Assembly (NCBI GenBank): GCA_010909165.1
Contig: MU008241.1
Span: 1 to 48,759, forward strand
DNA: 48,759 bases
Reading direction: 5' to 3'
From: Anthoceros angustus
Taxonomy: Eukaryota > Plantae > Anthocerotophyta
Part shown: in pieces, positions 4,132 through 39,655 of the stretch
Layout: each line of letters opens with the position of its first letter
How positions within the stretch are numbered: the stretch's first letter is position 1
Made by a program: the position numbers and the translations under genes
The notes under the pieces: generated by a model
The model's input: only the letters and a program-made list of their open reading frames with translations
What the model was told of the DNA's origin: nothing
Database searches by the model: none

Positions 4132-4946
4132 AAGTATCGAGCCATGGTTTGGTTGTGTTGTGATGCTAGAATTTTCTAGGCTGCGGCAGCTGGAGTGCAG
4201 TGATCGAGATCGCGGCGCGGCCGCAACGCGGCGGATGAGGCCGTGGCGAGCGCCGCGATGGCGGCGAGGCCGGGCGAGCGCAGCGGGCCGTGCGCCGGCC
4301 GCGCGGGGGCGCGGGCCGTGAGCGGGCGGCAGCCGCGGAGGCCTGGGCGCGCGAGCGCGGGGCCGGCAGCGCGCGCGCCGCGCGCCGGGCCTTGAGCGCC
4401 CGGCCGCGGCAGCAGCGCGGCGCGGCCGCGCGAGCCAGCGCGTGGCGCCGGCCCGCGAGGCAGCCCGAGCCCGCGCCAGGGCCAGCCCGAGCCGCGCGGC
4501 GCGCGGCCCGCAGCCGCGGCCTGTGGCCGCCCAGCAGCCGCAGCGCCCGCGGCGCGGCGCCGCCCGGCCAGGCCGCGGCGCGCAGCGCCCGCGGCGCGCG
4601 AGGCCGCGCCGAGCGGCGCCGGCGCCCCCAGGCCGTGGCGCCAGCCGGGCCGCGGCCCCGGTGCGCCGAGGCCGGAGCCCCGGCAGGCCTTGGCCGGCGC
4701 GGCGCTGGCCGCGGCCGGCCGGCCGCGAGGCGTGCGGGCGTGGCGGCCGTCGGCCGGTGGCGGCGCGCGGCGGTGGCGTCAGGCGCGATGCCGCGCGCGT
4801 GGCGTGAGCGGCGAGTGGCCGCGAGTGCAGGTGGCGGTGGCGAATTCGCCAAATATACTCGGTGGAATAAGCGCAAAATACAAGACCTTGATTTTTTTTT
4901 CTTCTAACAAGGCGAGTTGAGTGTTTTATCTATCGATTTTTGAGTC

Positions 4947-7900: not shown

Positions 7901-8703
7901 ATAAGCGTCTGCTTTATTTGTCTCAGACGGAATACATTAACAGGGTGCTTCAACGTTTCAACATGGAGAAGGGGAAGCCATTGGGTACTCCATTGCCTCC
8001 ATATGTGAAACTTTCAAGCGCGGATTGCCCAAGCTCTGAGGAGGACAAAGCTGAAATGGAGAAGGTCCCATACTCATCAGCTGTAGGGAGTTTGATGTAT
8101 GCAATGATTGCTACACGTCCTGACATTGCCTTTGCAGTGGGAGTGGTTAGCAGGTTTATGTCAAACCACGCAAGAAGCATTGGGAGGCGATAAAAGGAGT
8201 TATGAGGTATCCGAATGGTACAAAAGCTTTGTGCATATGTTTTGGTAGTGAAGATGCATGTGTGGTTGGGTACAGATCGATTATGCAGGATATGGACAAA
8301 AGGAGGTCCACATCAGTTATGTCTTCACGTGCCTTTGGAGGCGATCTCATGGCGATCTCGTTTGCGATCGTGCATTACGCTATCTACCACGGAGTATGTT
8401 GCGACAGAGGCTTGCAAGGAAGCCATATGGCTTGCTCGTTTAGTGGGAGACTTGGGGATCAAGGTTGAGCTGCCAGTGTTGCATTGTGATAGCCAGAGTG
8501 CTATCCAATTGGCAAAGAATCCAGTGTTTCATGCGAAGACTAAACATGTGGATGTGAAGTATCACTTCATTCGAGAGGTGTTGGACGACAAGAGGGTACA
8601 ACTTGTCAAGGTTCACACCAGCCAGAACCCTGCAGATATTCTTACCAAGGGACTCTCTACGGAGCAATTTGCACAAGCTCGGACACTGATGGGCATGAGG
8701 TAG
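4947..8703 (+). pseudogene. Copia A gag-pol (many frameshifts)
   Basis: FNIEKLDGTNF (gag), zinc-knuckle remnant near 5590, WIIDS(G)A protease, WHCRLGH, LELVHSDVCGP, TPPQNG integrase, MDVKTAFLHG and LYVDDMLI RT, CDSQSAIQLAKNPVFHAKTKH and ADILTK RNase H. Confidence 0.93.
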
Positions 8704-8745
8704 TCCATTCTTCCACGAAGGTAAATTGGCCTTTAAGTGGGAGGT

Positions 8746-9006
8746 TGTAAGGGTATTAAAGCCCAATGTACTTAGACTAATACACTTAGTCTAAGTTAGG
8801 TGTCGATTAAGTATCATTAGTTTAGCTTAAGCTAATCACTAGGAAGCTTCTTGTGCTCCTTCCTAGGGCTTCTTGTGGAGCTTCCTAGGGAATATTGGAG
8901 GTATAAATACCCTCCAAGCCTCATCTCAATGTGAGAGAGCTACTCTTGCCTCCTCCTCTCCTCTCCTCTCCTCTTTCCACCAGCATGGCTGCCCCACGAT
9001 CCTTCA
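8746..9006 (+). repeat. Copia A 3' LTR
   Basis: Follows the PPT; TG...CA; repeat of 3885-4131. Confidence 0.92.
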
Positions 9007-11225
9007 AGAAGTTTAGACACTATTTGCTGGCTTGCAAGGTGACGTTTCATGTTGACCATTTCGCGTTGAAGTACCTTGTGAACAAGCCAGATCTATCGGG
9101 AAGGATAGCCAGGTGGGTGCTCCGCAAGAATTTGATTTCGATGTGGAGACCAGGCCAGGGAAGCAACATCTGAACGCAGACTTCATTTCTCGTCTGAAGA
9201 CCGGAGAACGGCTTGAGGCCACTGATGACCGGTTTCCTGACGAAGAATTGTTGCCACAATGTGTGTTGAGGAAGGAAGGCATGAACGCGTGGCTGAGCAA
9301 CAGACCTTGCTTGCAGCAAAGGGGATCGGAGGGCTAGAAGAGGCGGCGGCAGTGCAGTGGGCGACACAGAGACCCAGGAGCGATGGGGGAGTGCCGGCGT
9401 GACTGCGGAGGAGCCAAAGCCGCGTCCCTAGGGTGAGCAGTCAGGAGGGCTGCAAGTGGAGGCCATGATGGTGGCAAGGAGCGATGGACAAATTGCGGAG
9501 AAATCGCAACTTGGAGGAAGGAGAGGTGGCACACAAAAATGGTGTGCTCAGAAGGTGTGTGCACTAGGGCCTAGGAGCGGGAATGGCTCTATGGCGATGA
9601 GTAAGAAGGAGAATTGTGGAGAAATCACACCTCAAGGCGTCCTTGCAGTGGAGCTGCAAGAAGGAGCATCGACCGGCCATGGGTCGATGGCGGAGATTGC
9701 TGCATAGGACATGCAGCAAGGCGAAGAGGTCGCCGAAAGAACTCGATCTGGACCTGTGCGCGAGGTCGGATCAATAGAAATAGGAGAAGCTGAAGAATTT
9801 TCGCAGGAAGGGCTGGCCGATGAGTTGCAAGACAGGGGCTCCACGACATGGACCAAGCAAGGAGGAAGTGGTTTGGCAAATGGGACGGCAACGTCTGGAA
9901 CTGCCGGTAGGCGAGTTGGCAGGAAGCGACGTGGTATGAATGGAAGGAAGAGACTCGAACGTGAAGGTCGACCATGCCCGAGGTACCTGCTGAACGGCGA
10001 AGTCCGTAAGTTCCTGGAGCATGGAACCATGCTTGATGGTTTGTCCCAAGAGGGGTACGCAGTCTTTCTTCGTAAGGCTGCACTGTATTGTCGAAGGGAA
10101 GGAGTCCTATACAAGCTTGGCCCAGATGAAAAGATCCGGTGTCTGGAGGTCGAAGAAGCTGCGCTCGTCACGGAGGCGCTACATGCAGAAGAGGCCGGTG
10201 GCCACTATTCAGCACAGATAACCGTGAAGAAGATCTTAGGTGCAGGCTTCTGGTGGGCTGCGATGCAAGAGGATGTGTGGGAATTTATTCGAAGGTATGA
10301 CGCGTGTCAGAGGGTTGGGCGGCCTACACTGTCGACACAATGGCCCCTCACCTATATACTACCGCTAGCACCGTTTGAAAAGTGGGGGATAGATTTTGTT
10401 GGACCGATCAAGCCACCCACCCAGTGGACGAGGAAGCAGTACATTCTGGCGGCTACGGACTACTGCATGAAGATGGTGGAAGCGGAGGCGACAAGAAAGG
10501 ACGACGCACCTGCAGTGGCGAAGTTTCTCTTTGAGAACATTATAACGAGGTACGGGTGTCCTTTAGAGTTGGTCAGCGACCAGGGAACTCATTTCCTCAA
10601 CTCCGTCGTTGAGTCTCTAACCACCTACTTCAACATCCGGCATCGAAAGACGACTCCTTACAACCCCAAAGCGAACGGATTAACGGAGAAGATGAATAGG
10701 TTGTTATGCACAATCCTTACCAAGGTAACCGTAACACACATGTACGATTGGGATGCTAAATTACATTAGCGGCTTACAGACTACGGGAAGTGTAACCAGA
10801 AGACCCTTATTACCTGACATATGGCATGTCCCTTGTGATGCCCGTGGAATTCGAAGTAGCTACCTATAGGATTCTGAAGGACGAGCGCATGACTATAGAG
10901 GATAGCCAAGTAGCTAGATTAGAATCTTTCATAGAACAGGAGGAACGTAGGGAAGATGCTTTAGAGGAAACCCAGCAAATTCAAGAGCTTAGAAAAGATA
11001 GGCATGATGGAAGGATGAGAGCGAAGGTGGGGTTATCGTGGCGAGTTTGGATTTCTTCTATCGATAGTCGCTACACGACTTCCCGAAGCTTAGGTTGAGA
11101 TGGATGGGACCTTATGACGTGGTGGCGGTATATGAGAATGGATCTGCAGCGCAGTCTTGGATGGAGATTTCTTGCCGACCAACGGAGTGAATGGGTGGAA
11201 GGTTGAAATACCTTCAACCTGAGTT
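9007..11225 (+). pseudogene. Gypsy RNase H C-part, long linker and integrase
   Basis: KFRHYLL...DHFALKYL...RIARW, RPGKQHLNADFISR, zinc-binding H...GGH...(C)DACQR, FEKWGIDFVGP, SDQGTHF, TPYNPKANGLTE, and a GPY-like motif near 11107. Confidence 0.9.
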
Positions 11226-13649: not shown

Positions 13650-16600
13650 GCGGGCGTTTGATCAAGTTTAGTGCTTTACTAATTGATACAATTGATTACA
13701 AGAGGTGGGCTTTTATAGCACAGTAGAAGAGTTGTACCTCTTCGGTACAAGATACCAAAGGTATGACCACTTGGGTTTAGCTAAGGTAACCATAACCAAT
13801 GCATGCTTCTAACTCTCCCTCTCGGACTAGTTGGGTTATCTAAATCAAAGAACTAATAATCATTTGCCTGGAGTATTGTATAAGTACTACGGTCTTCAAC
13901 TAAACTCAACTCACCGATCGTCACCGGTCAAGTAAGATTGAAGCAAGCGGTCTACAATAGTCAACTTCAAATCGAACGTTACGAGATAAGATCGCCTCAA
14001 ATGTGTGGTGGTCCGGCTTCAAAAAGTCACATCAACCAATCCAAGCCCTTCTCTGTGGGCAGTGTTTGAACTTCGCAAGGATTTTGTCGATTATATCTGT
14101 ATTGTCATACGTGGGTACATCTTTATACCTTAACAATTCCTCTCTCAGCAGCGTCACGAATATAATGGTGTTGAATCTCAATATGCTTCGTGCGCGCATG
14201 AAAGACAGGATTAGCGACAAGAGCAATGGCTGACATATTGTCACAATTAAGCACTGTTGGCCCTTCCTGCTTCATATCCAAATCTTCACATAGCTTTCTT
14301 TCCCATTCCCTCTTTCGGCTTGGAGTGCTTTGTACTCGATTACATTGATGAAAGTGATATTGCAGCTTGTTTTCTACAAGACCAATTAACTGTGAAGCCG
14401 CAAGAAAGCAATATCGAGATACTTTTGGTGTCGGTCCAAGCCCAATCTGCATCGACAAAGCATGTCGATGTGCTTCTTTCCAGGCTTGAAGCGAGGCCAT
14501 AATTTGGAGTACCCTTGAGGTACGCATGATGCGCTTGAGAGCAACCCGGTGATCCTTTCCCGGATTCTCGAGCAATAGCATTTCTGATTTGAGATATCAG
14601 TGCAGTCGATTACTCAAGAACATGAGAGTACCAACTCCCATACGATAAGGAATATTTTCCATCTCTTTCTTTTCCTGTTGATTGTGGGCAGCGGATGAAA
14701 GCACCTCGGCGCCGGTGTGGGCCGCGTGCATTCTCCAAATTGAAGCGTTTTAACATACCACTACATATCTTCCTTGATGGAGATAGATAGCACCGATGGT
14801 ATCTCTATGTACATGCATACCAAGAATATATTTAACTTTGCCGAGATCCTTCATCTCGAATTCTTTACTAAGGTCGACTTTAATCTTGTTAACTAGTTCA
14901 ATATTGTTGCGGGAATAACTAAGTCATCAACATATAGTGCAACCACAAAGGCTGTCCTTGCGAGTACATAGATATTGGTGTCGCTTCACTTTGGATAAAC
15001 CTATCTTCTTGAGGTAAGAGTCCATTCTCTCATACCATAAAGCGTGGGCTTTGCTTTAGTAAATAGAATGAATAAGTTTACACACCTTGTTTGGGTATTG
15101 CTCATCTTCATAGTCTTGGTTGATCCATATAGATCTCTTCTTTGATGACCATAAAGGAAAGCGGTACAAACATCAAGTGATAAATTTCAGTTAAGCTCGG
15201 CACATAAAGCCGAGCATTCTCAAGCACCTTGACTACGGTGAATAAACCTTATCGCCCTGATAGTCCACTCCCTCTTTCTGACTATAACCCTTAGCCACTA
15301 GTCTCGCCTTATAGCGAATACGAGGGTCAACCTCCTGGAATTTAGTTTTGAGAACCCACTTACATTTGACAGTAGTTCTGCCTTTAGGCAAGTTTACTAG
15401 AGTCCAAGTATTGTTTTTATAAGAGAATTATATTCATCATCAATAGCGAACTTCCACTTAGCTGATGAATATGGTTGCGAATATGCCTCTTGAAGAGTGA
15501 GAGGATCTCCCTCTGAAGGGGCAACATTGAAGGCGTTGAAATGACCTACAGCAGTGGTGGTGTAGACATTGAACTCTAAATCAAAGGGATCATTCCAGGT
15601 GTCTCGGTTGTGATGGCCGAAGGATACCCGCTCATGGATCAAGTATTACGGAGAAGGTGGAGCGAGGCATCTGGGTCTTGTGGATTAAGAGCACCAAAGT
15701 CTTCTGTTTTCATAAGGATCAACAATGGCTGTTCATCTTCCCCCTCTCGAGCAGGAACAATAGGTATAGGTGCTGCTTGAGGTGAAGAGGCCAGGGATGG
15801 AGCAAAGTTGCGGGACAGTCAACAGAGGGCTGAGTCAAAAACTCAGGCATAAGGTCACCTTGGTCGGAAGAAGCGTGTCGTCAAGGAGCCCGGAATCCAT
15901 GGACTCGAGCGGCGGATGCTAGCGAGCCTCATCAAAAGTGGTCGAGCATATACAATAGCATGGGTATCCAAGTCAACCGGTTTATAAGCCTTACGGTCCT
16001 CGCCATAGCCACAAATACCGACTTGCGAGCACAGCGGCTTGTCGAGAAGGAATATTAGCATAGGCGGGGGCAAAATCGAAGATGAGTAATAAGAGGCTTA
16101 TATCCATGCCAGACTCAAAGGGTGTCGGCGGGACTTGGAAAGAACCCTGCGGAATCGCCATAACCGCCCGGGAAGGGTTTGGGGGCGGCGGGCTAGCATG
16201 GCGGGCCATGGCGAGCGGTCTGGCCTTTTCAACCCCATTCCGAAGTATAGGGAACCAAAACGGCGGATAATCCCCTCTCAAGACGAAGTCCTTAAATTGC
16301 GGTTATTTAATTCTCCGCATTGTCGATCTAATGCAAAGCTTGCAACCGGTTTGCTCGACCATAGTGACAAAAGGAGTAAAGGAGCCGAAGGAATCACTCT
16401 TCAACTTGAGCGGAATAGCAAAGGTATAGCGACTAGTCATCAACAATAGTCATAAAGTGCGGCGCCAAGTGAAGGGAGAGTGGACCACAAAGATCAACAT
16501 GGACCAACTCCAAGGGGTGAGTAGCGACGGCGGTGAGTAGGATAGGGAAGCTACGTTGTTTAGCATATATACAAGGTTCACATAACGGAGGAGTCATGAA

Positions 16601-17940
16601 AAGTGTGGTAGCTTATCCCTAAATAAATCCCTAGACATCTCTAAAAGCTTATCATGATTAATATGTCCAAGCCGAGAATGCCATAATAGGAGTCACCTTT
16701 GCGAGAACTCTCCTCTGAGCATGGCCATTACTGGTCGAGGGTGATCACCACGTGGAGAAGACATAGAGGTCATCGCGGACGACCTCTAGCAACCCGCGAC
16801 CGGGGGAATAGATCTTGTGAGGCAATCGCCTCGCCGAACTCTAGCCTGAAAGTCCTTCACCAAGTGTCGGACGGAGATAAGATTCGCCATTTGCGGAACA
16901 TGTAGCACATCACTTAAAAGAAGGGCGAACCATCTTCAAGAGTAAAAATAAAGTGCAGTGCCGCAATAGTAAGGCCGGAGTCATCAGAAGAACAAAACGC
17001 GTTGATCTTGGTAGAGATAATCGAGAAACATATGGTGATGGCGGATGTCGGTGAGTCCAATAGCCAAGAGGTCTTATATTGAAGCTACCAATGTGAGGCA
17101 ATGTCGGCTGTTTACGCTTGGAGGTCGAGGCCATATTAGCGGACTTGGAAGGCGTCGAGGCTCACTTTCTTCTTCTTGCGGTCGGGCTCCGGTGGCACAG
17201 ATCGCACGATTGCAAGTAGGCTTGCTGGAACCCCGAGCTTGGAGAAGGAAGGACCGAGAAGGAGCGGAGAAGCGCGATGAAGGGCCGTCTCTCAGTGGAG
17301 GAGGACGGCGTCAGCTTGTGGCGTTGACGGCCTTTGCTACGAACATAACTCGTTCACCACCATGCTTGAAGTGCGGCGTTGAATCAAAGCCTCCTCTTGA
17401 AGGAGGCGGCAATTTCGGAGATGGAAATGTTGGGTGTCTGACGGCCTTTACTGATGAGCCTCTCGAGCGTGCCATTACGAGAGGACACAAATGCTTGAAA
17501 TGGCGGGAAGGGAGGCCGTGGTTGGACACAAGCTTCAAATTCCGATAAGGGGTGCCTAAAGCGACAAGCTGGGCCGAAGATATCGAAACTTCCAACATAA
17601 GTACCAATGCTCTCATTATTATGCATGCGTAATAAAATTAGATTACGCTGTTATAATGTCATAACATTGGTAGATTGAAAAATATCTACTAGCCAAACTT
17701 CAGCAGTAGCCCCATCAAAATGATGAAGAGTGACTTCATCGAGGCCGAATAAGGATATGCATAGCAAGCTTGTCTTGTTTCAACCAGAGTCGAGGCGAGG
17801 CCCAGTGGGCTTGACAGTTCCATCAACTATGCCAATTAGATCTACGGTATTTAAGGCGAGCATACGTTTGGACCATATTTTGAACTTAGTGCCGTCAAAG
17901 CGGTCATAGAATCTCAACCCGAGGGTCACCCGATGAAGAA
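13650..17940 (-). mobile_element. Ty1/Copia element B, 5'-truncated (gag-pol, PPT, 3' LTR ~13650-13813)
   Basis: Minus strand: RFDGTKFKIWSKRML gag start, WHSRLGH, integrase remnants, YKARLVAKG, LYVDDL, CDNMSAIALVANPVFHARTKHIEI. PPT complement TCTCCCTCT at 13814. Confidence 0.88.
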
Positions 17941-19280: not shown

Positions 19281-21240
19281 GATGTATACCTCATCCATGT
19301 TGTCTTGCTCTACATCGTGGTGTCTTGACTGAGTATACCCTTCGTGTGCTTTCATGATCTCCCACAATAGGTGTTTTTTCTCCATGTGATTGCAACCCTT
19401 CCTTCCCTCACCTTAGAGTCCCAGTCCACTGGCTTGAAGTGAATCTCCTTTCTCCCGAAGTGTAGCTTCTTTTGAGCCAGTCCAAGCCAGGGCCGTCCCA
19501 ACAGCACCTCATACCCCAATGGTCCTGCCGGTTTGATAACTACGAAATCCAACGTATAAGGTGCGCCGGCTATGGTGGCTAGGACTCCAGTTCCCCTGCT
19601 GGATCTCGCCTTGACATGTCCGCCATCGTCAGGGTCTTGGTTGAGGGTTCGAAAGTGGTGAACCCCAACCTCCTAGCCATGGCCTCCGTGATGAGGTTGA
19701 CACCCAACCCCGTGTCAAAAGGTACATCCTTAATGATACACCTGGCGATTTCCACCTATACCACTGGCACTCCCGGTCTGTATGGAACACCACCCTCACC
19801 TCCACGGTGTCGTTTTTCCGGGATGTGGTGCTTCGGCGCGGTTGCGTCTCCCGAATGGCCCGACGGACCTCCTGGCGATACTTCGGGTTGTCCCTCAACA
19901 GCTGCCGGAACGACACCAGGTGTTGTTGATTCATCATCAGGTTCGCCACGTTGAAGGGGGTGGGGGTCTTTGTAGGCCCCCGGGGTAGCTGCTGCAGCCT
20001 ACTGGGCTCTCCCTCCGAAGCCCCTCCAGCCATTCGCGTCCGGACGGCCTCCGGATACTGGCGCATTTCCTCCTGTAGCATTTCCGTTACCTCCCGGACA
20101 ACATCCGGCAGAAATTGGGGTGCTACCTTGGGGGGACCCACCTCTTCTTCTTTCTCCTGCCCAGGAGAACTCTCTTCGGGTAATTCCTCGGGTAGAGTTG
20201 CCCGTATCAACTCTCCTTCATTGGCCGGATCTTTTACTGCCCTTCCAGCTTGGCTACCGTCCTCAGTGTCCGTAGCACTCCCTCCCGTCTTCTTCCGCTT
20301 CAACTGTCTTCTTACCTGTCTCTCTCTCTGGCGACTATGGGTAGATACCTCCAAAACCTCGGCGCCGTCCTCCCTCTCCTTCGGACCAACCGTACCTCCC
20401 TCACTCCTCACTGGCTTCGGACCCCTGGGAACCTCCTCCCACTCCGCAAGTTGCGCATCTTCGATTTGCAGTACGGGAGCGGTCTTGCAAGTGAGCGGCG
20501 TGGGCGGTCGGGTTTCTCCAGCTGGCGTGGCATAGCGTACCATCCTCGTACGGGGGTTTGGACTGGCGTGTTGCCATGTGTCCAAACTTTTTTGAAGCAT
20601 GCGTCCGAAATTTCGATCGCGCAGATCCTCCTCGCTGTGGAAGAGGAAACGCGCATGACGCGCTGTCACGAGGAAAGCCCCGGCTGTCTCGGCGAGAAGC
20701 GCTGCCTCACACACGGTCTTTGGCACGCGCTGGGCGGCCACATTGCCGCCTTCCTCGCCAATGTCACGTTGCAGGAAACCCTCGACGGCATTCCGCCCGC
20801 GAAGCTGGCGCGCGGCGTCTCGGCCAGCGTGCAGGTCGCGGCTGAATGACGAACCGGCACANNNNNNNNNNNNNNNNNNNNNNNNNNNNNNNNNNNNNNN
20901 NNNNNNNNNNNNNNNNNNNNNNNNNNNNNGTCTCCTCCTCTTTCTCTGACGAGACCTCCGACTCCTCGTCCTCCTCTTCTGAGGACTCCTCCTCCTCGGA
21001 ATCCGAACTCCTTCTCTTCTTCTTCTTCTTGCCCCCCTGGGTAGATTTCTTCTTCCTTTGGTGCAACGATTCCTCGTAGTTCTCAACCGCTCTAACCGCC
21101 TTGTCCACATCCTTCTTGGCTAGTAGCTGGACGTGCTAAGCCATGGGTTTGGCTAATCCGGCCGCGAACCACCGTACCGCCTGCATGGTGGTGTGAGTAG
21201 AACTGCTCGATGTATGAGCCCAACTTCTCCTTTTTACCCC
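19281..21240 (-). pseudogene. Gypsy gag C-part, zinc knuckle and aspartic protease (fragment)
   Basis: K/S/E-rich gag tail, knuckle remnants, protease-like IIKDVPFDTGLGVNLITEAMARRLG and YEVLLGRPWL. Confidence 0.8.
20862..20929. other. Assembly gap (68 N)
   Basis: Run of N. Confidence 0.99.
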
Positions 21241-22025
21241 TCTTCAAGTTTTGGCTGTTAGGATGACCTAAGCGACAATGCCAAAGTGTGGTGTTGGAGA
21301 AGGTGGCAGAATTGTGGGTGGCTACACTACATTCATGGTATGTAAAGGAACCACTTGGACTGACAGTTTATATAGACCGTCCTCTAGTGTCGGAGCAGAT
21401 GGTATAAAACTTACTTGTGAGATAAGAAATAAGACAAATATCTACGTGAAGAATAACTTGCATGCTATGATCGGAACATAAGCTAGCGGCAAACACTAGG
21501 TTTTTGCACATGGATGGTACGTGAAGGACATGGGAAAGAGAGAGACCTTGGCCTGAAGAGCATCTGAGAACAACTGAACCTACACCAGAGATGGGGAGGT
21601 TGTGATCATCGCCAATAGACGAGTTTGGTGTCACATGGGTAAATAAGACTCAAAGAGTTTTTGTTGTAGCGGATATGTGATGTAGCTCCCTTGTCATCGA
21701 GAATTGGTTTGATGGCTTTGATGATGCCATCACCGACAATAAAATATGGTGTTGTGGAAGATTGTTTCTTCACTACAACATGTGCTCCAGGTGCGGCCTC
21801 CTTCCTAGGCTCGCCGTTCTTCTTTTTCTTGCAGTCCTTCTCCATATGATTTGGAATTCTGCACCAATTACAAATAATAACTCCAGTCTTCTTATTACCT
21901 TTTGTAGGTGTTGAAGAAGACGAGGATTCGCCGCCGAGTCAATATTGGTTGGGATTGGGTCGTGAAGAAACAAGTCCTCTACCACGGCCTCGGCCTCGAT
22001 CTCTTCCTCTACCCCTTCCAGTGAA
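21240..22025 (-). pseudogene. Copia gag zinc knuckle/protease fragment
   Basis: GRGRGRG tract, NHMEKDCKKKK knuckle end, LDDKGATSH, GDDHNLPISGVGSV...LSHVLHVPSMCKNLV. Confidence 0.8.
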
Positions 22026-22032
22026 CATCACA

Positions 22033-23106
22033 TGCGGAGGAAAATCCCGGGCTTAGAGATTCACCTCTGCGCCCACACTTATCCCACTTGCCGTTTAAAT
22101 ACGTTGGGTTTCGTCCCATGAGACTTGTGTGAACGGTCGGATCTTGGGAAATCGATCACGCACTCTACACACTACCTCATTTCCCTAAACAAGCAAGGCA
22201 CCCACTACTCTCCCTCACGTTGCACACACCTGCTCCTTCACTCAATCCTCGACCTACAATGACACCATACAATTGCAGGTCATGCCTTAGCAGCAGGGAG
22301 TCTATCACGAGCGCGCCCAGGGACCCCTTGGCCCACACCGCAATTTCGTCCCTACTCCTAAGACCAATCTTCTCCCCACAGGGAGCGCCCTCTTACTGCA
22401 TATTTGGGATTCGTTCTGTAGCCTATGGCCTTCCGTTTTTCCTACACTCTAAGCTCCCTCACAACCTTCTCAATCAACAACGCTCTCTCCTTCTCTACTC
22501 ATCTACCCTTCCTCCTTCCACGATCTCCTACTCTAATGCCGTTTGCTTGGCTCATTAATTCCAACTCGCTATACAGCTGGCACAGTCCGTCCAAAATTAG
22601 CAGAAGTTCTTCCTTGGGCGGTTGCTAGTGTGGTTTGCAGATTGAGAGAACCTCCAGAGTCTTTCCTCATGAGTCTACCCTCAGAGTTCCTTGAGCATCG
22701 CCACACACTCAAAGCAAAACAATTCACGGCAACCATTCTACAGTGAGCGGTGGCGGGCGCTGCGGTGAACAAGCCCTCCGCCCCACCACTCAGGCCAGTG
22801 GCGTACTCCCTCTGTGCAGGCCATTTGCATTGGCTTGTGATGCAGTCACGCACACAAAGCGAAGGACTCGGGAGGATGGGAGCGCAAGACACGATAATTT
22901 TACTTCACAAACTCCCTCCTTTTATAGGGAGGACCTGTACATACAACCTCCCTTGGGTGGGCCTGCTGCAGGCCACCTTTCTCAATATTTTATAATTTCT
23001 TACCGCTAGCATTTAAGTTCTGGCATCCAAGTCTGCTGTCTGATTTCGGGTAAATTCTATTCTAGCAAGTTCACCTATGTCAACCTTGGAATAACTTCAG
23101 TCTACA
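22033..23106 (-). repeat. Gypsy family G LTR, copy 3
   Basis: Begins TGTAGAC and ends ...CCGCA on the minus strand; similar to 459-1465. Confidence 0.8.
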
Positions 23107-23978
23107 CCACCTATCCTTCCCACTTCCCAAAGTGCATTAATGGGCATTGACCAACTTGAGTCCTTATCTTGCTGAGGCGGTGACGTGTTCCCTGTTGGTT
23201 GGCTTTCTCATCCTCGTTTTGCTCCTGCCACCTCCCCAGTTTCTGTCTTCTTCCTGACTTGTGGGGCAAGAATCTTCTTGTCCCTTCTTCCGCGTGGGCG
23301 CCTGATTCCCTGATTCTCCGGATAATTCGCCTCGCCCGTGCTCCAAGCGGCCTATCTTCCATTCTCCGTTGGTGCGCTCTTTCAAGGCACCCTTCCGATG
23401 TAGGTGGCGGCCCTCAGGGTAAGTTGGCCTCCTACCATGGTAGGTTGGTCCCTTTCCTCCATGCTGTTCTCCTGTCTTCACCTTGGAGAAAACTTCATGG
23501 GCTAATGTCTTCTTGGCTCCCTTGCCTGCTGTTTGGTTTGTCCATACCTATCATGGAGCATTCCCAAAAGACCCCTTTTCCCCCAGTCGTGGCTCACCAA
23601 TGTCTCCTCCCTAGTGATTCCTCCGGGCCTTCTTCGTGTTGGACTCCTTCCCGGGTCCCGATTCTTCCCTTGATCATGGGGTGTGAGAATTTCTCACCCC
23701 TTCTCCTGTTCCGACGGGGCGGACCCCATCCTTGGTCTCCTCCGGCGGCTGTCCCTTATCAACCACCTTGTCATCTTTCCTGTGCTTTGGATCCCCGGCC
23801 TTCCATCCTCTACAAGGCCCCATGGCTGCTTCTGCCTCGGACCTCGTTCGTGGGTCCACCTTCCCGCGATAGGGCTGCCTACTCTACAGGTAGGCGGTCT
23901 CCCTCAGTGGTAGGTTGACCCCCTGCACTTCCCGCGCCATCTCCTTCCTTCTGCTATTTCCTCTCCCTCTCTCCTTCA

Positions 23979-24183
23979 TGTGCGTTTACATGATTGGTAG
24001 GCTAGACATTCAGATGAACATAAGGAAAAAAGGAACTGGTACATTACAACGATAAGAGAACAAGGATATATTGTCCAAGTCTCACGAACGGTTACAACTA
24101 ATAACTGTCATTAGGGTTTTGAGTAAACCTATCGACCTAGGTATATAACAATGTAACATAAGTAATATTTAACTATTCTAACA
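23979..24183 (-). repeat. Copia C 3' LTR
   Basis: Adjacent to the PPT; repeat of 30298-30509. Confidence 0.95.
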
Positions 24184-24355
24184 CCCCCTCTCATTGTATA
24201 TACAGCTAAAAGCCTAAACGGGAATAATAGCTGAAATCTAAAAAACGGTAACACGCAAGCCCCGCAGTCTGAACTCCTTTAATACTACGCTCCAGCTTCA
24301 GCTACTGAGCTTCAGCTCACGAATCCTCCTAACATATTCACGCTTCCGTTGCGCC

Positions 24356-25235
24356 ATGGCTGGATCCAAAGCTGCTCCAATTGACCTATCTGATCCTGAA
24401 TATGACGAGCCAGATACGGGATACCACAGCGCATCTGAGAGCGAGGCTCAGGCTGGTCACGCGAGCTTAGCACCTGCTTCACCTGTGAAGAAGGAGTCAC
24501 CTGGTACCACTGCCCTGAGACGCAAGCTCTGCAGATGTCCTGACGATGCTCCTCCTCACCTGCATCCTAAGCGGTGACAATCGAGGATGTCGGATAGGAG
24601 TCATGAGGCCGGCGTAAATGCATGATTGAAGCGGGAGAAAGGGAAGCTAAGCTGAGGCGGGAGGTGGCAAGACTCAAGCAGGCTGTAGCTACTTCTTCAA
24701 GACACCCTGCTTCATACAATCACAGCTTCGTCAAGACCAGAACAGAGAAGCTAACGGAGGCCCTCGACGTTGTCGTAATGCCTGAGAGCTACCGGCCCAG
24801 AGACTTTCAGATGCCCTTAGGCCACCTCTATAAGATGAAACGTGTGATTACTGACGGGGACGGAGCGGACGACCCCATGACCCCAGAGGTTTACATCTGC
24901 CCTACCTCTAAGGTCACCATGTTCAGGCAAAATTGGTTCAGATGGGGTGGACAAGACGGGAATTTTATTTCCTACTACGGTATGTACAGGTTCTACAGCT
25001 TGTCAAACACCTGCTCACTGTGACTTGACCTACTGCTAATGTCTGCTTTATGTGTGAGAGTCCAGTTTCACGGGAGAGAATGGCTGAGGAGTCAGGTATG
25101 GTCTGGATGGACGAGAATGAAGATGGGTCTGAGGAAGACAAACCAGACTTCGACCCAAATTTCGATGAGCTTCATGAGATGAGCAAGAGGGGAAAATCCA
25201 AATTCCTATCCCCCTCTAGCTCTGAAGAATTTTAG
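24356..25235 (+). CDS. Putative antisense two-exon gene inside Copia C (unknown protein, ~265-270 aa after repairing small indels)
   Basis: Consecutive + ORFs 24356-24577, 24622-25023 and 25050-25235. Good start context GCCATGG; donor G|GTATGT at 24980; branch CTAAT at 25036; degenerate acceptor near 25056. Confidence 0.55.
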
Positions 25236-25318
25236 ACCCTTAGACACAGACAGACCTAGGTAGAAAAGACACTGTTAGTGCAAGACTCTCCTACCTACTG
25301 CTCCTCAGACTACTGTAA

Positions 25319-28300
25319 CTAATCTTTGCTGGACTTGTTGAAGGGTTGACGTGGACTAAACACTCCTAACGCCTCCTTAAGTTGGTAATGCTTCACCCTG
25401 GGTAAGCACTTGGTAAAAATATCTGCAGCATTGGAATCTGTTGGCACATACTCCAGCGTAACCTAACCAGTCTCAACTGCATGCCGTATAAAGTGATGGT
25501 GGACTTCCACATGTTTTGTTCTGGCATGGAATACTGGGTTTTGAGCCAATGCCAAGGCTGACTGATTATCACAGTATATCAAGGTTGGCCCCTTCTGTGG
25601 ATGTCCAAGGTCAGCTAACAGTCTTCGCAACCAAATTGCTTCTTTGGAGGCTTGTGTGAGGGCGGTAGTATTAAACCTCTGTGTGAAAGTGACACCATTG
25701 TCGCTGATGACCATGTCACAAAGACCTGCAAGTAAAAGCGTGTAGACCGACCTTCTCAGACTGGCGGGTGCAGTCGGCATCACAGTAACCAACAAGGGTA
25801 AACTCCTCTTCATCATATCCTTGCTTGGTGTAATTGATGCCATGGTCACAAGTCCCTTTTAAATAGCGAAGAATCCTCTTTGTTGCTGACCAGTGTACTC
25901 TTCCCGGGCTCTTGAGATGCTGGGAGACCATGCTTACAGGAAGAGCTATATCTCCAGTCTGTTATTGAGCAATAAATTAGCTAACCACTGAGCATAGGAA
26001 TCGCCTCCATTTCACTTCTCATGCTCGATTAAGGTATTTCCTTGGACAACTTGCAGCCAGCCTCAAGAGGGGTAAGTGCTGGCTTGGCATCAGTAAGTTT
26101 GTACTTAAATAGCATGTCGAAAATATATTTTTCCTGATGAATTGTAAGCGTTCCAGATGCAGGATCACGGTAAAGCTGCATTCCAAGACAATAAGAAAGC
26201 TCTCCTACGTCAACCATGTCGAAACGAACAGATAAGAGGCCCTTCACTTTTGTAATCTGTGCTAAATCAGTGCCCAACAGAATACAGTCATCTACATAGA
26301 GTGCTAATATGACATAGCCTGTGGGGTCTTGCAGACGATATACGTTCGAGTCAGCAGTACTCTTCTGAAAAGTAAGACCCAGCAAGTATTCATCAATAAA
26401 TTGATACCAGGCTCTGGGGCTCTGCTTGAGCCCATATATAGTCTTGAGAAGCTTGCACACATGATCCTCTTTGCCTTCCATCTCGAAGCCCTCAGGTTGT
26501 TGCATAAAGATTTCCTCCTCCAACTTACCATGTAAAAAGGCTGTTTTGACGTCCATCTGGTGTATAAACAAACAGGGAGAAGAACGCCGACATCGAGAAG
26601 AGAACCCTCAAGGACTGAGCCTTCACAACAGGCGAAAAGGTATCATGATAATCCAGTCCTTCTACTTGAGAAAAGCCCCGAGCAACCAACCGCGCTTTGT
26701 ATCTAGAAATACTGCCGTCCGCCTTATATTTTAGCTTGAAGACCCACTTAGAGGTCACAATTTTCCTCCCCTGAGGCGGAGGGCAGATTTCCCATGTCTT
26801 ATTCTCAATCAGACTATCATACTCCGACTTGATGGCTTGTTTCCAAAAATGAGCTTCAGGACCAGAGATAGCTTCATTATATGATGAAGGTTCATAACCC
26901 GGAGTCACCACCATATTAGCCCTCTCAACAACATCAATGACTACCTCCCCTGGACTTGAACCAAGCGGACGAGGAACCTTCCGAAAGTCCTCAATCCGGT
27001 AAGGCGGCTCAGCCCACTGTGCAGGAGGTCTCCTAACTCTGGTAGACCATCTAGGAGGGGCCAGCTGAGGAGGAGGGATTACATATTCCACAGGATCATC
27101 GACAAACCAATCTGGAATTTCAACAGGTCGACGTGGAGATAGTGGTGGAGAAAGCAGGTGATCATCGGTGGCGGGCATCACATCCGGCGCTCATCAACAT
27201 CCATGATGATCGGGGCATACGAATCGACATCGAGCCACAGTAGCGGTAAGGGGCACCTTTGGAACTAGAGGTGGAACAGCAGGGTAAGAAGGATCATTAT
27301 CGGGAAAATGTACAAAGTCAGACTCACTAACCTCACTGTCTGTGTCTACAGGAGGTTCCTGAAGGGAAACTTCGTCTGAGTCTAAAAAATCATCAGGGGA
27401 ATGGGAGGGTGGTTTCAAGACAACACTCTCATCAAAGGCTACAGTCCTAGCATGAACAACTCGACGAGAAGTAGGATCAAAAAGCTTGTAGCCGTGAATT
27501 CCTGCTGTATAACCTATAAAGATATGCCTTTTAGACTTGAAAGCAAACTTGGTACGTAACTTATCTGGTATGTGTGCATATGCAGTGCTGCCAAACACTC
27601 TGAGATGAGACAAATCAGGTTTACTACCTGTCCAGACTTCGAAGGGGGTGGAACCACGAAGGGAAGACACAGCTGACCTATTGGAGATAGTGGCAACTTT
27701 GCCTCAGCCTACTCCGACGATGAGCAACAGCCCACAGTACGGAAAGGGCTCGTGCGGCGTCCTGAATAGTCCTGTGCCTCCGTTCAACTCGTCCATTCAT
27801 ATCAGAATGGTACGGAATGGTAAGTTGTCGTGTGATCCCCCTCTCCTGACAAAATGCCTGAAAAGCTGTAGACATGTACTCCTTGCCATTGTAAGCGAAT
27901 ACATTTGGTGTAATGCTGCTCGCATATGCGGAATAACGTTAAGCTATGAAACACCTCACTCTTTTGGCGGAGAAGCTCAGTTACTACAAAATGGGATCTG
28001 TCATCCTCAAATACGACAAAGTATCTGGCTCCTCCCCACGAGGGAACAGACATTGGTCCACAGATGTCTGAGTGGACTAAATCCAGGATCTCTGTAGGCT
28101 TTCTTGTCTTTCCACTGCCAAAGTGGGACTTAAACTACTTCCCATGCACACAGGCTACACAGAGATCAAGATCAGGTAATTCACTTTCATTAAAACCTGT
28201 TACCATTTTTTCTCGCAAAAGTCTCCTCATGGCTTGAATATTTGGATGTCCTAGTCGACAGTGCCACTTAAAGGCATTTCCAGCTTTAACGTTTGTGGCT

Positions 28301-29712
28301 GTAACACTTGCAGTAGCTTTCTCACGAGGTACATCAGACACAAAGTCCAGAAGGTACAAATCAAAGAGTGGTGTACTCTATATGTGTGATTGGCGAGTAA
28401 GTGGATCGACATTGATTGCCTTGACGTAATCCTATAGAGATTCGTTTTTCCCAGAGCCATAGTGCTTACCAAATTTTTGGCAAGAGCTGGAACATGAAGT
28501 GCACCTTCTAACAAAAGATAACTGCCATCCTTCAATGTAATTTGTACAGCTCCAGATCCCTTGATTGGTATAGTAGAGTTGTCTCCTAACACTACTGCTG
28601 TTTGGTGGCATGTAGGAGATGACTCATAGGTGATGAAGGATTTCTTCTTCGAACACATATGATTGTTGGCTCCACTGTCGAGAAACCACTTCTGACAACC
28701 TGCTTTGGAAGAAGACAAGAAGGCTACTAGCAGCCCTGGTGTCGCAGCCCTAGCAGTATGTGTTGCTGGTGGATGAGGCCCCTTAGCACTGTCGTCCCTC
28801 ACCTTCTTCCTGCAATCTTTAACCCAATGGCCTGGCTTCCCACAATAGTTACAATTTCCAGGTTTGGAAGTGGAGTTTGAACTTGGCTGACTTGCATGAG
28901 AGAAGGACGTCTGACCTCTACCCCTGCCTAAACCACCTCTCCACTTTCCTCTAAACCTACCCCTGCCCCTACCCCTACCAACATATAATGCTGTATCACT
29001 TTGTTTGTGAGAGGTATATGAAGCTGACGAGCCACCTTTCATTTGTTTTCTATTGGCTTCAAACTGTAACAAAGCCCCTACAACTTTCTGGACTGTAAGG
29101 TTAGAAGATGCTGGGGTAGTTGCTGTGGCAGGGTTAACTATTGCTGAGGTTTGCAGGCTGGAACTAAACTGTTCATAACTAGGTGGAAGCGAAAGAAGCA
29201 GCTGTATGGCCGCTCTTGATTCAGTTACCAACACTCCACAGGATGCAAGTTTGGCTCTACAGGCCCTGAACTTGGCTACATGACTCTCAACTGAGTCTAA
29301 TTCCTTCATGCGAAGTGTCTGGTATTGCAGGGTTGCTGCTGCCTCTGCTACCATGTCCTTTGAGTCATATGTCTCTGATAGCAACGACCAAACCTCGTTT
29401 GAGGATTCAGTCAATCTGATGTGAGGTATCATCTCCTGCGATACGGAGGCCACGAGGATTGTTCGTGCCTTCCTATCTTTATGCTTCCACTCTAATTCAT
29501 CTTTCATTGTCCATTTAGGTACAGTTCCTCCAGGCGAAGGAGGACCAGAGGGCTGTCCGTGAACCTTCTTCGGAACAGACCCATCAACAACTTCCATGAG
29601 AAGTTTCTCCTCTAGGATGGTACGCACCCTAAAGCTCCAGGCATCAAAATTATGAGAATTCAGACGGTCCCTCTCTTGCAGCCTATCACGGGCGTGGGTT
29701 CTTCGACGCCAT
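25319..29712 (-). CDS. Copia C gag-pol polyprotein (frameshifted as assembled)
   Basis: RLNSHNFDAW gag, CNYCGKPGHWVKDC knuckle, WFLDSGANNHM protease, WHCRLGH, integrase (LSHLRVFG), YKARLVARG, QMDVKTAFLHG, LYVDDCIL, CDNQSALALAQNPVFHARTKH, ADIFTK; stop at 25319. Confidence 0.93.
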
Positions 29713-30176
29713 GATACTGCGGAAGCAGACAAAATTATAAATAACAATTTGCTCCACAGTCCGACCTGTCTCTGGTTTGCCATTGTCATCAGATCTGAAA
29801 CACGTTGCTTCTCAATGTACTCCTGTTTAATCTGAACTGCATCAATTCGGGACGTGTATTCCAAGACTGTGCTCTTAATGTTCAGAATGGAGTTGAGAAT
29901 GGCCTGATGCTCAGTGAAAACTTCAGGTCTGGAATGCTTTCTGTGAGCGACAGCTGGATATTCAGTATGCTTCTTTTTGCATTCACAATCTGATGACGAT
30001 GCACGGCTGTTTGCAGGAATATGAGAATCAAGAAAAGCGTTAAGAAAACGTGCTCTGTCTCTAACTTTGGCAGGCGACGGAGTCTTCTTAAAGTAGAGCC
30101 TTTCAAATTCAGCTCTGCGCTCCTTTGCGTTCTCAAATTCTGGACAGAACTGCCTGCAAGGATGCTTGCGAGGCAT
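29690..30176 (-). CDS. Putative upstream ORF (~160 aa) in the Copia C leader
   Basis: Stop-free frame from ATG 30176 (MPRKHPCRQFCPEF...) between the PBS and the probable gag ATG at 29712; fused in frame to gag as assembled. Confidence 0.45.
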
Positions 30177-30297
30177 GTTTCCACATCTACTAGGGTTTTG
30201 CAATAATTGCCATTCGGCTTCAAGAAATTCTAGTATTATGTGGTAAATGCAAATAGCCAAATAGCCCAGAAGATCAGAACGTGGTGCTCTGATACCA

Positions 30298-30509
30298 TGT
30301 TGCGTTTACATGAATCAGATTGGTAGGCTAGACATTCAGATGAACATAAGGAAAAAAGGAACTGGTACATTACAACGATAAGAGAACAAGGATATATTGT
30401 CCAAGTCTCACGAACGGTTACAACTAATAACTGTCATTAGGGTTTTGAGTAAACCTATCGACCTAGGTATATAACAATGTAACATAAGTAATATTTAACT
30501 ATTCTAACA
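30298..30509 (-). repeat. Copia C 5' LTR
   Basis: TG...CA, adjacent to the PBS. Confidence 0.95.
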
Positions 30510-32095
30510 TTCTGGCTCCTCGGAGTCCATGTCACTTGTGGCTTCATCAAAATCTGAAGCCTGTGGCCTCACTTGCAGCAGCGCCTCTCGGTCATCATGA
30601 TGAGGACCTAAAGTCCTCCTCTTAGCAAGGCGCAACACCTTGTTGTTGGCCTTGAACACCCGGTTGTGGAGGTGCGCTCCCAAGCTCTGATACTGCATCT
30701 GGAGGTCGTCGAGCTCCGTGGGCCACTCTCCACTCTCACACCTACCTCTGTAGGCGTCTCTTGCCATGGTTGCTTCGCCCACCCTCACGTGTAAAGCGAC
30801 ATCCTCCTCCCTCGCTTCTCTAAGTTGGCTAGCCAGCTTTGATTGAAGGGCATAATCTGCCCGAAATCGCCTCTTTCTCACTACCAGCAACCTATGGACC
30901 ACCTTCTTGTGGCGCTCCTCCTCTCACGCCCTCCTCTGTTCCAGGTCTGCCACCTGCTTGGCAAGCTTCTCCTTCTCCTCCTGCTAAGCATCCTTCTCGC
31001 GTTCCAGCCCTTGCACTCGGAGATCTTGGTTGATCAATTCCGTGCTCCTCACTTCCAAGATCAATCGGGTCTTCCGCAATTCTTCCTCTACATCCCGGAT
31101 CTTGATGGCTTGGGTGGCCAACACTTGCTCCTGTGCTTCCACTTGTTGGACCGCCTGCTTTTCCCTCCCTAGAGCTTTAGATTTGCTTCGCCGCTCCTGC
31201 TCTAGTTGGGCAAAATGGTCCTCCGCCTTTTGCCTCCACGTGTCTCGCTGGCCGGTGGCTCGGACAGCTCTTTCTTCCACTTGGGATAGCTTCCCCTCCA
31301 GAGTCTTCTCCGTCCGCCTGTGATCCATAATATCCTGTTGGAGCTTCTCCACAGCCTTCTCCAACTTGGCTGCCTTCTCATTGGACTCCATGGCCTCCAG
31401 CTGCCACTTGGTCCCCGCTCATCTCTCCTCCATCTCTTGGGCTTTGTTCGCCCGGACCTCCTCTTGACCTGCCAAGAGGGAGGCTGCCATTTCCCTTGCC
31501 TTCTTCAAGTCTACTTGGCTAAGTGTCTCACAGACACTTAGCAAATCCCCCAGGGGCCCCAATTCAGACCCCGTTGGCCTCTTGCTAGAATTTTCAAGCG
31601 TCCTCGTCCCCACAGGCATCGCTGGCGGGCGGTCCTCACTGCGCGCTCCATCCCCTCTTCCTCCTGGCGCGGGTGATGGCTGCCTGGCCCGGACCCTCGG
31701 TGCCCTCATGGCTCTCCTTCCTCTTCCCTACCATGGTGATGCGCCCCTCTGGGCGTGGTGCCTACCGCGGTGGGTTGAGTCCCTACTGTAGAGTGCCACC
31801 TACCATCGCGGTAGGTTGGCTACCTACCGTGGTAGGTTGATGGGGTGCCTCTCCTGCTGGCACCCACGAGATGGTGGGAACCCCTCCCACCCTTGGGGCT
31901 GTCTCTCCTACCGCGGTAGGTTGCCCTCCTACCGTGGTAGGCTGCACTCCTACTATGGTAGGAGTGCCCTTATAAATCACCACTTGGCCCTCATTGGCCT
32001 GCATCTCTCGTCCTCCTCCTTGCTCCTCATGTGAGGGAAAATCCCCCACCTCCGGCACGCTATGATAGCTTGCCAATTGCCTCTTTCGAGGACCC
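30510..32095 (-). pseudogene. Gypsy family G extra ORF, C-terminal coiled-coil half
   Basis: Frameshifted ORFs 31783-32097, 31419-31709, 30984-31391 and 30504-30902, with E/K/Q/L heptad-rich sequence and QPTTVG repeats. Confidence 0.7.
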
Positions 32096-32559: not shown

Positions 32560-33420
32560 GCCTTCCCACTTTACTTTTGTGTCCGGTTAGTTCTCATTCT
32601 TCTTATACTTACATGGTACGAAATGATCTTGTCCTCTGCATCCTTGGCTAAATTGTACTTTGAACATGTGTTATATTGTAGAATATTGTCCTCTCTAATC
32701 CTTAGTTCACATGTCTTGCTACATAATTTATGAAAAACGGGCTTTATCATCACGGTTCTGCAGTTGTTGGTTACTACATTGTCACATTCTTGCATATGGC
32801 AAATGGTATATTTTTTTCCCACATGGACAATAGCTCACCAAATTCATATATGTTGTTGAACGGACGTGCGATAGTTGCTAGGAACTCAGTGTCAATGGCA
32901 GCTTTCAAAATCTCAGCGGTTAAACCTCTTTCAATTGCTGACTTCCCATTTTTCATATCTTTAATAGCCTGCTTGACTTTGGCCATTGTGAATATGGAGT
33001 AGGCATCCGGTGGTGCCAATGGTTTTCTGTTGTAGTGAATACATTTTTCAATTGCTGACTTCCCATTTTTCATATCTTTAATAGCCTGATTGACTTTGGC
33101 CATTGTGAATATGGAGTAGGCATCTGGTGGTGCCAATGGTGTTCTGTTGTAGTGAATACATTTTGTACATTCGTATAATTATTTGCCGGGTTCGTACCAT
33201 AATTGCAGGTCCCGAATTGGTTCGCTGATCAAGTTGGTAGCCATCCTACTATTTATTAGACTTGTGTAGGTTCTCCTTCTTGTCCTGCAAGCCTTCTTGT
33301 ATTCCTTGCTTAATTTGTCAAACAAACTCTGGTTGAAATTCTTCGTATTTAGTACCTCTCGCACTTTGTTTGTAATCCTTATTATACCATATCGGTAGGT
33401 TAGACTTCTCAAGTGTTGGG
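32560..33420 (-). mobile_element. Degenerate non-LTR retrotransposon (LINE) RT-region fragment
   Basis: FTMAKVKQAIKDMKNGKS...GLTAEILK...FNNIYEFG...W...N(Y)RTVMI..VFHKL matches the pre-RT/domain-1 region of LINE ORF2. Confidence 0.75.
32929..33164. repeat. 117-bp tandem duplication (2 copies, 3 mismatches)
   Basis: TCAATTGCTGACTTCCC recurs at 32931 and 33048. Confidence 0.95.
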
Positions 33421-38852: not shown

Positions 38853-39655
38853 TGTTAACTAGGAGCTGCCTTGCTGAGACGATGATGTGTTGCATGCTTA
38901 TGCAATCTCCTAGTAGAGAAGCTAGTAGCCACCTTGCTGAGAAGGTTTTGATTTCCATTGGGGTTGTCTTGGGATATCCATCGGGGTCGTTTTGGGATTT
39001 CCATCGGGATCGTTTTGGGATCTCCATCGGGGTCGTTTTGGGATTTCCATCGGGATCGTTTTGGGATCTCCATCGGGGTCGTTTTGGGTTCTTCCTGTTG
39101 AGAGAAGTGATACATCGCACGGAACTCAGTAAACCCATATTCTTGTTTGTGGTGCTTTCGGGAAGCTCTGTGAAGTGATCCCTATGTTGCATGCTTATGC
39201 AATCTCCTAGTAGAGAGGCTAGTACCTGCCTTGCTGAGAAATCCATGTGTTGCATGCTTATGCAATCACTTAGTAGAGAGGACTCTTGGTGACGAGAGGT
39301 CTACAAGAATTCCCTGGGCTAGAGCAAGGCCTTAGAGGCATTTATTCTACATTGCAAGCCTTGTGTTGAGAGAGCTGAGCCTAGCTAGTGAGCTTGACAT
39401 TAGTTGGGCGTAGATAGCCAGACTCCAGTGTATTTTTGGGGAATAGAGAGTAGCGCCTCGAGGAGGTGGTCTGCGAGTCGTCAGTTGACAGCAGGCTACT
39501 TAGAGCCTAGTGCTGCGTTGTGAGGTTGAGAATGCTAAGAGTTGGTGCATGTCTCTAATCATGAGTGAATTGGCAAGATCCTAGACCGCTGGAGCCTGCA
39601 CTTGTCGCTTCTATACTTGCTGTGGAGTAAAGCGCGTTATTTGTGGTATTAGAGC
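38853..39655 (+). mobile_element. Probable LTR with internal repeats, followed by a tRNA-Met PBS
   Basis: TGGTATTAGAGC at 39644-39655 (11/12 match to the PBS) after a repeat-rich segment. The 5' boundary is uncertain. Confidence 0.5.
38948..39090. repeat. 23-bp minisatellite, ~6 units (GGGATHTCCATCGGGRTCGTTTT)
   Basis: Units start at 38971, 38994, 39017, 39040, 39063 and 39086, plus a degenerate unit at ~38948. Confidence 0.95.

Follow-up and report, generated by a model that had tools for sequence, protein, structure and literature searches.

Here, we analyzed a 48,759-nt stretch of DNA from Anthoceros angustus (Anthocerotophyta; contig MU008241.1 of assembly GCA_010909165.1, positions 1 to 48,759; hereafter the window), in which a 6.5-kb Copia long terminal repeat (LTR) retrotransposon spans positions 23979-30509 on the minus strand. 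The spacer of ~1.1 kb between the pol stop and the 3' LTR of this element is filled from start to stop by a putative gene on the plus strand, leaving 172 and 83 spare bases, and we give a probability of roughly 0.55 to the reading that it holds a family-encoded, two-exon antisense accessory gene of ~265 codons. A spliced antisense coding gene had been proposed at this place in an earlier note made from the sequence alone; coding statistics of the plus strand, an in-frame GT-AG intron and a start at the first ATG speak for that proposal, while the acceptor it had named was misplaced.

A putative antisense gene in the pol-to-LTR spacer

Three consecutive plus-strand open reading frames (ORFs) lie in the spacer and converge on the pol stop (25319-25321, minus strand), with 83 bases separating the pol stop from the antisense stop. 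ORF1 (24356-24577, 73 codons) opens with GCC-ATG-G, is acidic and rich in Ser and Pro, ends in a basic patch and would form the first part of exon 1. ORF2 is open from 24607 to 25023, and its portion up to the putative donor (24607-24979, 124 codons) would form the second part of exon 1. ORF3 is open from 25029 to 25235, and the portion that encodes an acidic tail and ends in a TAG stop (25233-25235) would be exon 2 (25066-25235). Between ORF1 and ORF2 lies a break zone (24541-24606) with a frame change and stops, four of them in the frame of ORF2 (24541, 24568, 24595 and 24604) and one in the frame of ORF1 (24575). The earlier note had located these signals correctly, including the ORF positions, the GCCATGG context of the ATG at 24356, the donor TACG/GTATGT at 24980, the CTAAT at 25036, the TATATA motifs at 24142 and 24197, the polypurine tract (PPT) next to the LTR together with the EREAKLRREVARLKQ stretch, the basic patch and the acidic termini of the encoded protein. 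The arrangement lies between pol and the 3' LTR in antisense to gag-pol, which is the positional definition of the aORF-3R class of retrotransposon ORFs, with one junction broken. What sets this class apart from cargo is conservation throughout the family, together with expression.

Upstream of ORF1, a TATATAA motif inside the 3' LTR (24142-24148, plus strand) is a candidate antisense promoter; its core is palindromic, its position is 37 nt inside the LTR when read in the sense direction of the element, and it may be the sense TATA box of the LTR. A second TATATA (24197-24202, plus strand) is a motif only. The first ATG after 24151 is the one at 24356, and ATG-free gaps of that length number 29 of 925 in the window.

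Coding statistics were assessed against shuffled sequences. Only four frame switches are needed to cross 24356-25232 on the plus strand, compared to 9.4 on average in dinucleotide shuffles, of which 6 in 1000 needed as few, for limits that were picked after the ORFs had been seen; across the whole spacer, eight switches are needed compared to 12.7 in shuffles (31 of 1000 as low). The minus strand of the spacer is ordinary by the same test (819/1000 shuffles). A base-by-codon-position chi-square, which is a statistic untuned to these ORFs, reached 27.6 for the three pieces pooled compared to 6.9 in shuffles, a value reached by 2 of 3000, and it was highest in the proposed frames among nine frame combinations. 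Periodicity of ORF1 alone was matched by none of 2000 shuffles. With a codon model for which 1805 Copia codons from the window, including those of the host element itself, served as the training set, the pooled score was reached by 75 of 3000 shuffles, and a statistic devised after the compositions had been seen gave 0 of 3000 for the pooled pieces. Taken together, the reduced number of frame switches, the periodicity and the ordinary minus strand make it likely that the spacer strand opposite pol now is, or once was, coding.

A putative intron joins ORF2 to ORF3

In the unaltered assembly, an 86-nt GT-AG intron joins ORF2 to ORF3 in frame. This putative phase-1 intron (24980-25065, plus strand) has an ACG/GTATGT donor, the CTAAT at 25036 and a CCAG acceptor. 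A 77-nt intron from the same donor had been proposed before and was dropped for lack of an AG in the assembly: its end reads TG, the AG dinucleotides begin at 25057, 25059 and 25064, and the CAG ending at 25065 gives 86 nt instead. Within the putative intron the T content rises to 33%, whereas the coding parts on either side have 20-22%; the coding score drops immediately behind the donor (z = -3.1 for the ORF2 tail), and the coding signal disappears in both frames. A mechanical scan of both strands of the window, with criteria set when the 24980-25065 site was already known (7 of 9 matches to the donor consensus, a branch motif, YAG, a length of 60-120 nt, flanks open for 50 codons in both directions and an intron being needed), returned two sites, of which the putative intron is one, and none in gag-pol. 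Relaxing the scan to 30 open codons gave eight donors, and a second good donor at 25096 had no qualifying acceptor in the scan. The site carries predicted splice signals, and the acceptor in use may be another AG. Reverse transcription of LTR retrotransposons copies the sense RNA. An intron on the antisense strand would survive retrotransposition because the genomic RNA carries just its complement, which is no substrate for splicing.

Frame breaks and the read-error pattern of the assembly

Frame breaks are also present in gag-pol (25319-29669, minus strand), where gag is unbroken and 14-15 breaks occur from ~28370 down. Frameshift-aware alignment to three reference polyproteins counted 14, 14 and 15 breaks, which the earlier note had left unmentioned; the initial 1.3 kb has none, and all of them lie within ~3.0 kb of pol. 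Break density is alike in the two genes, with four switches per 877 nt in the antisense gene and 14-15 per ~3.0 kb in pol. Three other Copia copies in the window hold 26, 32 and 28 breaks over ~2.6 kb each, and an alignment of 3067 columns between two copies of another Copia shows 112 gaps and 85 substitutions. More generally, repeat copies (e.g., 6013-9006 and 41860-44808) differ more through gaps of 1-6 nt than through substitutions.

Across 121 gaps from three repeat pairs, CAG/CTG was overlapped 28 times compared to 6.5 expected and CG 26 times compared to 9.9 expected, with homopolymers barely enriched (28 compared to 21.8). CAG/CTG was identical between repeat copies in 12 of 88 look-ups, compared to 224 of 346 for AAG/CTT, and its changes between copies were mostly losses and rearrangements, not C-to-T. 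CG and CHG are methylated contexts of plant repeats. The gap pattern suggests read errors at methylated bases. Since the gaps pile up on CG and CAG/CTG, many of the breaks are likely read errors, and a break in the window is a poor guide to whether the gene concerned is alive. As in pol, the break between ORF1 and ORF2 probably reflects either a read error or a lesion that the studied copy acquired recently. Repair of this junction by restoring CAG/CTG triplets had been proposed previously; damage at CAG/CTG was indeed seen in other repeat pairs, but the junction remains a real break in the assembly. Claims of frameshifts or broken genes based on this assembly need caution.

The host element is a young Copia retrotransposon

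The element has the Copia domain order, LTRs bounded by TG...CA, a primer binding site (PBS) and a PPT, as in Ty1/copia elements. Pfam matches comprise Retrotran_gag_2, zf-CCHC, Pol_BBD and RVT_2, and the stretch from 29669 down to 25361 is collinear with full-length Copia polyproteins, with gag, protease, integrase, reverse transcriptase (RT) and RNase H following one another. The 5' LTR (30298-30509, minus strand) is 212 nt long and is directly followed by the PBS TGGTATCAGAGC (30286-30297, minus strand), presumably of the tRNA-Met type; the PPT GAGAGGGGG (24184-24192, minus strand) abuts the 3' LTR (23979-24183, minus strand). Relative to the 5' LTR, the 3' LTR lacks 1 and 6 nt near its outer end, and these two gaps are the only differences, with no substitution in 207 aligned columns. 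The insertion is therefore young. The target-site flanks, CTTCA on the left and TTCTG on the right, would form an imperfect 5-bp duplication at best, and the left junction adjoins both LTR gaps. Both flanks of the element match, in order, a single older element at 533-2522. The Copia sits inside a further copy of that older element (22000-23978 and 30510-31700), which is 70-74% identical to the one at 533-2522. No second copy of the Copia element was found in the window.

The best RT identity was 55% among the 120 matches listed. In a quick tree of 116 rows, from which matches covering 150 residues or fewer had been excluded and which held no lineage-labelled references, the RT formed a long branch belonging to none of the strongly supported groups, among them the one with most named flowering-plant matches, and was placed loosely, without strong support, near Marchantia and Adiantum rows.

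The predicted protein and searches for homologues

The predicted protein begins with 73 acidic, Ser/Pro-rich residues with a basic end, followed by a helix, ~90 aromatic-rich residues and an acidic tail with 17 Asp or Glu in 55 residues. The helix, predicted at residues 9-28 of ORF2, is coiled-coil-like and of low confidence (AlphaFold2). AlphaFold2 without an alignment produced two disagreeing, low-confidence ORF2 models (predicted local distance difference test scores of 39.6 and 50.1), and fold comparison of the middle domain gave no match above the usual chance level (best Z of 4.5 and 5.6).

For homologue searches the ORF pieces were used unaltered and not joined, with ORF1 and ORF3 compared to Pfam, NCBIfam and the window alone. 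Pfam gave ORF2 just sub-cut-off matches (E of 0.057-0.11), the three ORFs scanned separately had no match to Transposase_28 (PF04195), PMD or DUF390 at E up to 1, and NCBIfam matched none of four proteins. The antisense ORFs matched nothing elsewhere in the window, and Rfam nothing in 23900-25400. ORF2 had no match among PDB sequences, no word-search match among 263 candidates of longer proteins, no usable match in the ESM Atlas and none in viral contigs (0 of 7), where the RT gave 1 of 2, a 16-residue match; among metagenome contigs, one of 98 stretches gave ORF2 a 20-residue match that was taken as chance. Word searches of this kind can be blind, as gag with its upstream ORF gave none of 7992 candidates. 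HMMER searches of ORF2 over 1.84 billion representatives returned two matches and no true homologue: a Lingula TIMP-repeat protein and a repetitive FAZ1-domain protein were both rejected, their scores being sums of six or seven repeats at 6-10 bits each. The Atlas recognition value of ORF2 (2648) lies above a level reached by 91 of 100 known and 9 of 100 shuffled proteins, which is no proof of a real gene.

Comparison with antisense genes of other elements

ORFs placed antisense in the interval from pol to the 3' LTR (aORF-3R or eORF-3'R) are described for maize Grande (gene23), rice RIRE2, Silene Retand, bean PvRetro13 and Botrytis Boty, and for Grande gene23 a nuclear location of the product and a separate promoter upstream of the gene are reported (PMC7264820). 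The putative gene shares with this class its position, its orientation, its convergence on pol and the lack of clear homologues. The well-described plant hosts of aORF-3R are Gypsy elements, whereas the element here is a Copia. Antisense ORFs occur in 86% of Retand and 60% of Ogre elements (PMC6317226, supplement 5), and Retand spacers measure 2.9-6.6 kb, 97% of them with Transposase_28 (PMC11963269). In contrast, the spacer here measures 1.1 kb, has no Transposase_28 match and contains a putative intron. Identity with the Retand/Tat antisense ORFs was rejected on the Copia instead of Gypsy domain order and on the missing Transposase_28, PMD and DUF390 matches.

Among Copia elements, extra ORFs of at least 250 codons were counted in 582 of 5410, in a survey whose main text nowhere uses the word fern (PMC6317226). 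Those of SIRE, with a mean element length of 9.9 kb, are 74% 3' forward and 1% 3' reverse, and Bianca (5, 2) and Ikeros (4, 6) also have extra-ORF values whose column assignment is unclear in the part of the source drawn on (PMC6317226). The statement in the earlier note that the known Copia extra ORF is sense was therefore too strong, given the 1% of 3' reverse ORFs in SIRE (PMC6317226, supplement). The typical SIRE extra ORF is nevertheless sense, in a 9.9-kb element, compared to an antisense ORF in a 6.5-kb element with 212-nt LTRs here, and identity with the SIRE env-like ORF was rejected as the minus strand of the spacer shows no coding tendency. The antisense layout between pol and LTR is common in Gypsy and rare in Copia elements. 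As the survey counts unbroken ORFs of at least 250 codons alone, a two-exon gene of this kind would be missed (PMC6317226). If the present reading is true, spliced accessory genes escape long-ORF surveys, and their number in Copia may exceed what is tabulated (PMC6317226). No intron-bearing antisense gene in a Copia was found in the literature searched, which lay mostly outside subscription journals; the element table of PMC6317226 may list Copia elements with reverse ORFs.

The spliced antisense gene HBZ of HTLV-1 is expressed from the 3' LTR and regulates sense transcription via a dimerizing helix (PMC2731725). HBZ differs in belonging to a retrovirus, in its TATA-less promoter and in encoding a basic leucine zipper protein, and serves as an analogy only, with no sequence relation shown. 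AtRE1 is a Copia element. Antisense promoters are cited for AtRE1 of Arabidopsis and for Mdoryco1-1 of apple (Ty1-copia according to the cited title); for both, the portion of the review drawn on gives antisense transcription and no antisense protein-coding gene (PMC7264820). The same review urges a search for antisense and spliced transcripts and counts the role of antisense extra ORFs in LTR retrotransposons among the questions still to be answered (PMC7264820). Compared to Gypsy elements of 11-15 kb, a Copia that is short and young and has one compact antisense gene would make testing simpler. The importance is tempered by a class that is already known, a single copy, an error-rich assembly and a function that is predicted only.

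Alternative explanations

Several observations weigh against a family-encoded antisense gene. The evidence comes from one copy. The ORF1/ORF2 break stands in the assembly and is not repairable from a single copy, pol holds 3-4 in-frame stops while gag is unbroken over 1.3 kb, some lesions in the studied copy may be real, and the read-error analysis draws mostly on other elements in the window. Periodicity of the single ORFs is weak for ORF2 (117/2000 shuffles) and ORF3 (209/2000), acidic low-complexity ends inflate periodicity scores, and among 12 stretches that are open in antisense to pol, one scores higher on the post hoc statistic. The interval from the branch motif to the CAG acceptor holds two other AG sites of GAG type, and donors this good occur about once per 440 bases per strand (112 on the plus strand in 48.8 kb). 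Finally, a role as nuclear regulator is drawn from composition and analogy rather than from measurement.

These points leave room for other explanations. The spacer could carry a one-off, reverse-oriented capture of a piece of a host gene or of another transposon's gene, intron included, as cargo without a role. Reverse orientation would keep the intron intact, ORFs captured in one or few copies are known (PMC7264820), and A. angustus seems poorly represented in databases, to judge from the long RT branch and the best RT identity of 55% among the matches listed, so that a lineage-specific host gene could be missed. We nevertheless regard a capture as unlikely, since the region resembles a whole gene from start to stop rather than a fragment, captured genes are usually sense to gag-pol (PMC7264820), no conserved host gene matches, and the putative gene has neither a true homologue among the 1.84 billion representatives searched with ORF2 nor a match elsewhere in the window. 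Alternatively, the family may have a real accessory gene, but the studied copy could be dead or its gene in decay, with ORF2 and ORF3 perhaps forming a single lesion-split exon without an intron. The in-frame stops and clustered frameshifts of pol, three of them within 80 nt near 25700, and the frame change and stops at the ORF1/ORF2 junction are consistent with decay, but the LTRs show no substitution in 207 aligned columns. A one-exon structure is further opposed by the loss of coding signal in both frames inside 24980-25065, where T content goes up, and would require two lesions whereas the intron requires none; decay, with or without an intron, appears quite unlikely.

A non-coding spacer with chance ORFs and splice signals, giving at most a regulatory antisense RNA, would account for the lack of a family, a homologue or a confident fold, and several of the tests used limits set after the fact; antisense non-coding RNAs are described in other elements (PMC7264820). 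Against it, the untuned periodicity (2/3000), the strand asymmetry and the in-frame intron all agree, which makes this explanation improbable.

Proposed function of the antisense product

If the spacer does hold a family-encoded gene, a promoter within the 3' LTR or next to it would drive a plus-strand transcript towards pol, starting at or just after the 3' LTR, with 24356 as its first ATG and the 86-nt intron at 24980-25065 spliced out. The TATA motif at 24142 could serve as antisense promoter, sense promoter or both. Judging from composition and from analogy with Grande gene23 and HBZ, the basic patch might import the protein into the nucleus, the helix might dimerize it, the middle domain might bind a nucleic acid (DNA or RNA) or else a factor of the host, and the acidic tails might contact chromatin or the transcription machinery. 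We tentatively propose, as a possibility only, that the product acts as a nuclear regulator of the element's own expression, that is, as a trans-acting regulator or anti-silencing factor for its promoter or chromatin. If the transcript extended beyond the 83 nt that separate the two stops, it would overlap with pol RNA and might have a function as antisense RNA as well.

An upstream ORF and other features of the window

The element has an extra sense ORF upstream of gag (29763-30176, minus strand, ~138 codons), which is open in frame into gag as assembled. Its periodicity was reached by 1 of 1000 shuffles on the tuned statistic and its codon score by 35 of 1000. No homologue of it was found, the best Atlas score of 0.77 being a lead at most. 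The T-rich stretch before the gag-homologous part ends in a strong acceptor-like CAG at ~29722, with an ATG in another frame within 5 nt, and from these predicted signals gag may be translated from spliced RNA. Extra ORFs at both the 5' and 3' sides occur in sunflower Gypsy elements (PMC11728184), and Tekay and Ogre Gypsy elements have a sense ORF upstream of gag, as here (PMC11728184, PMC6317226). The present ORF differs in its Copia host, its ~138 codons and its frame continuing into gag, with no homology to the Tekay or Ogre ORFs shown. It raises the ceiling of what this element could represent if both extra ORFs prove conserved. In the most far-reaching version, which is doubtful, this would be an undescribed Copia lineage with two accessory genes, in a layout resembling that of a complex retrovirus. 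One would be the sense ORF that precedes gag; the other would be the spliced antisense gene, expressed from the 3' LTR and encoding a dimeric nuclear protein of a new family that lifts silencing from the element's own promoter or tunes it.

In the older element surrounding the Copia, the minus strand near 30504-31500 has coiled-coil-like reading frames, perhaps an extra ORF. A second Copia family is present in two copies (3885-9008 and 41860-44808) with LTRs of ~250 nt and a pol that ends ~40 nt before the LTR, leaving no spacer; its first copy contains a stretch of 72% G+C at ~4070-4930. A third, more broken Copia pol (14110-16700, minus strand) has 28 breaks, and the region behind it shows no match to the antisense ORFs described above. 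Integrase-like (9708-10769, plus strand) and gag-like (19629-21119, minus strand) frames belong to other elements, probably of Gypsy type. At 38859-39281, a 23-nt tandem array (38950-39088) lies between 61-nt repeats, and at 32924-33157 a 117-nt unit occurs as two head-to-tail copies that are 96% identical. A run of 68 N occupies 20862-20929.

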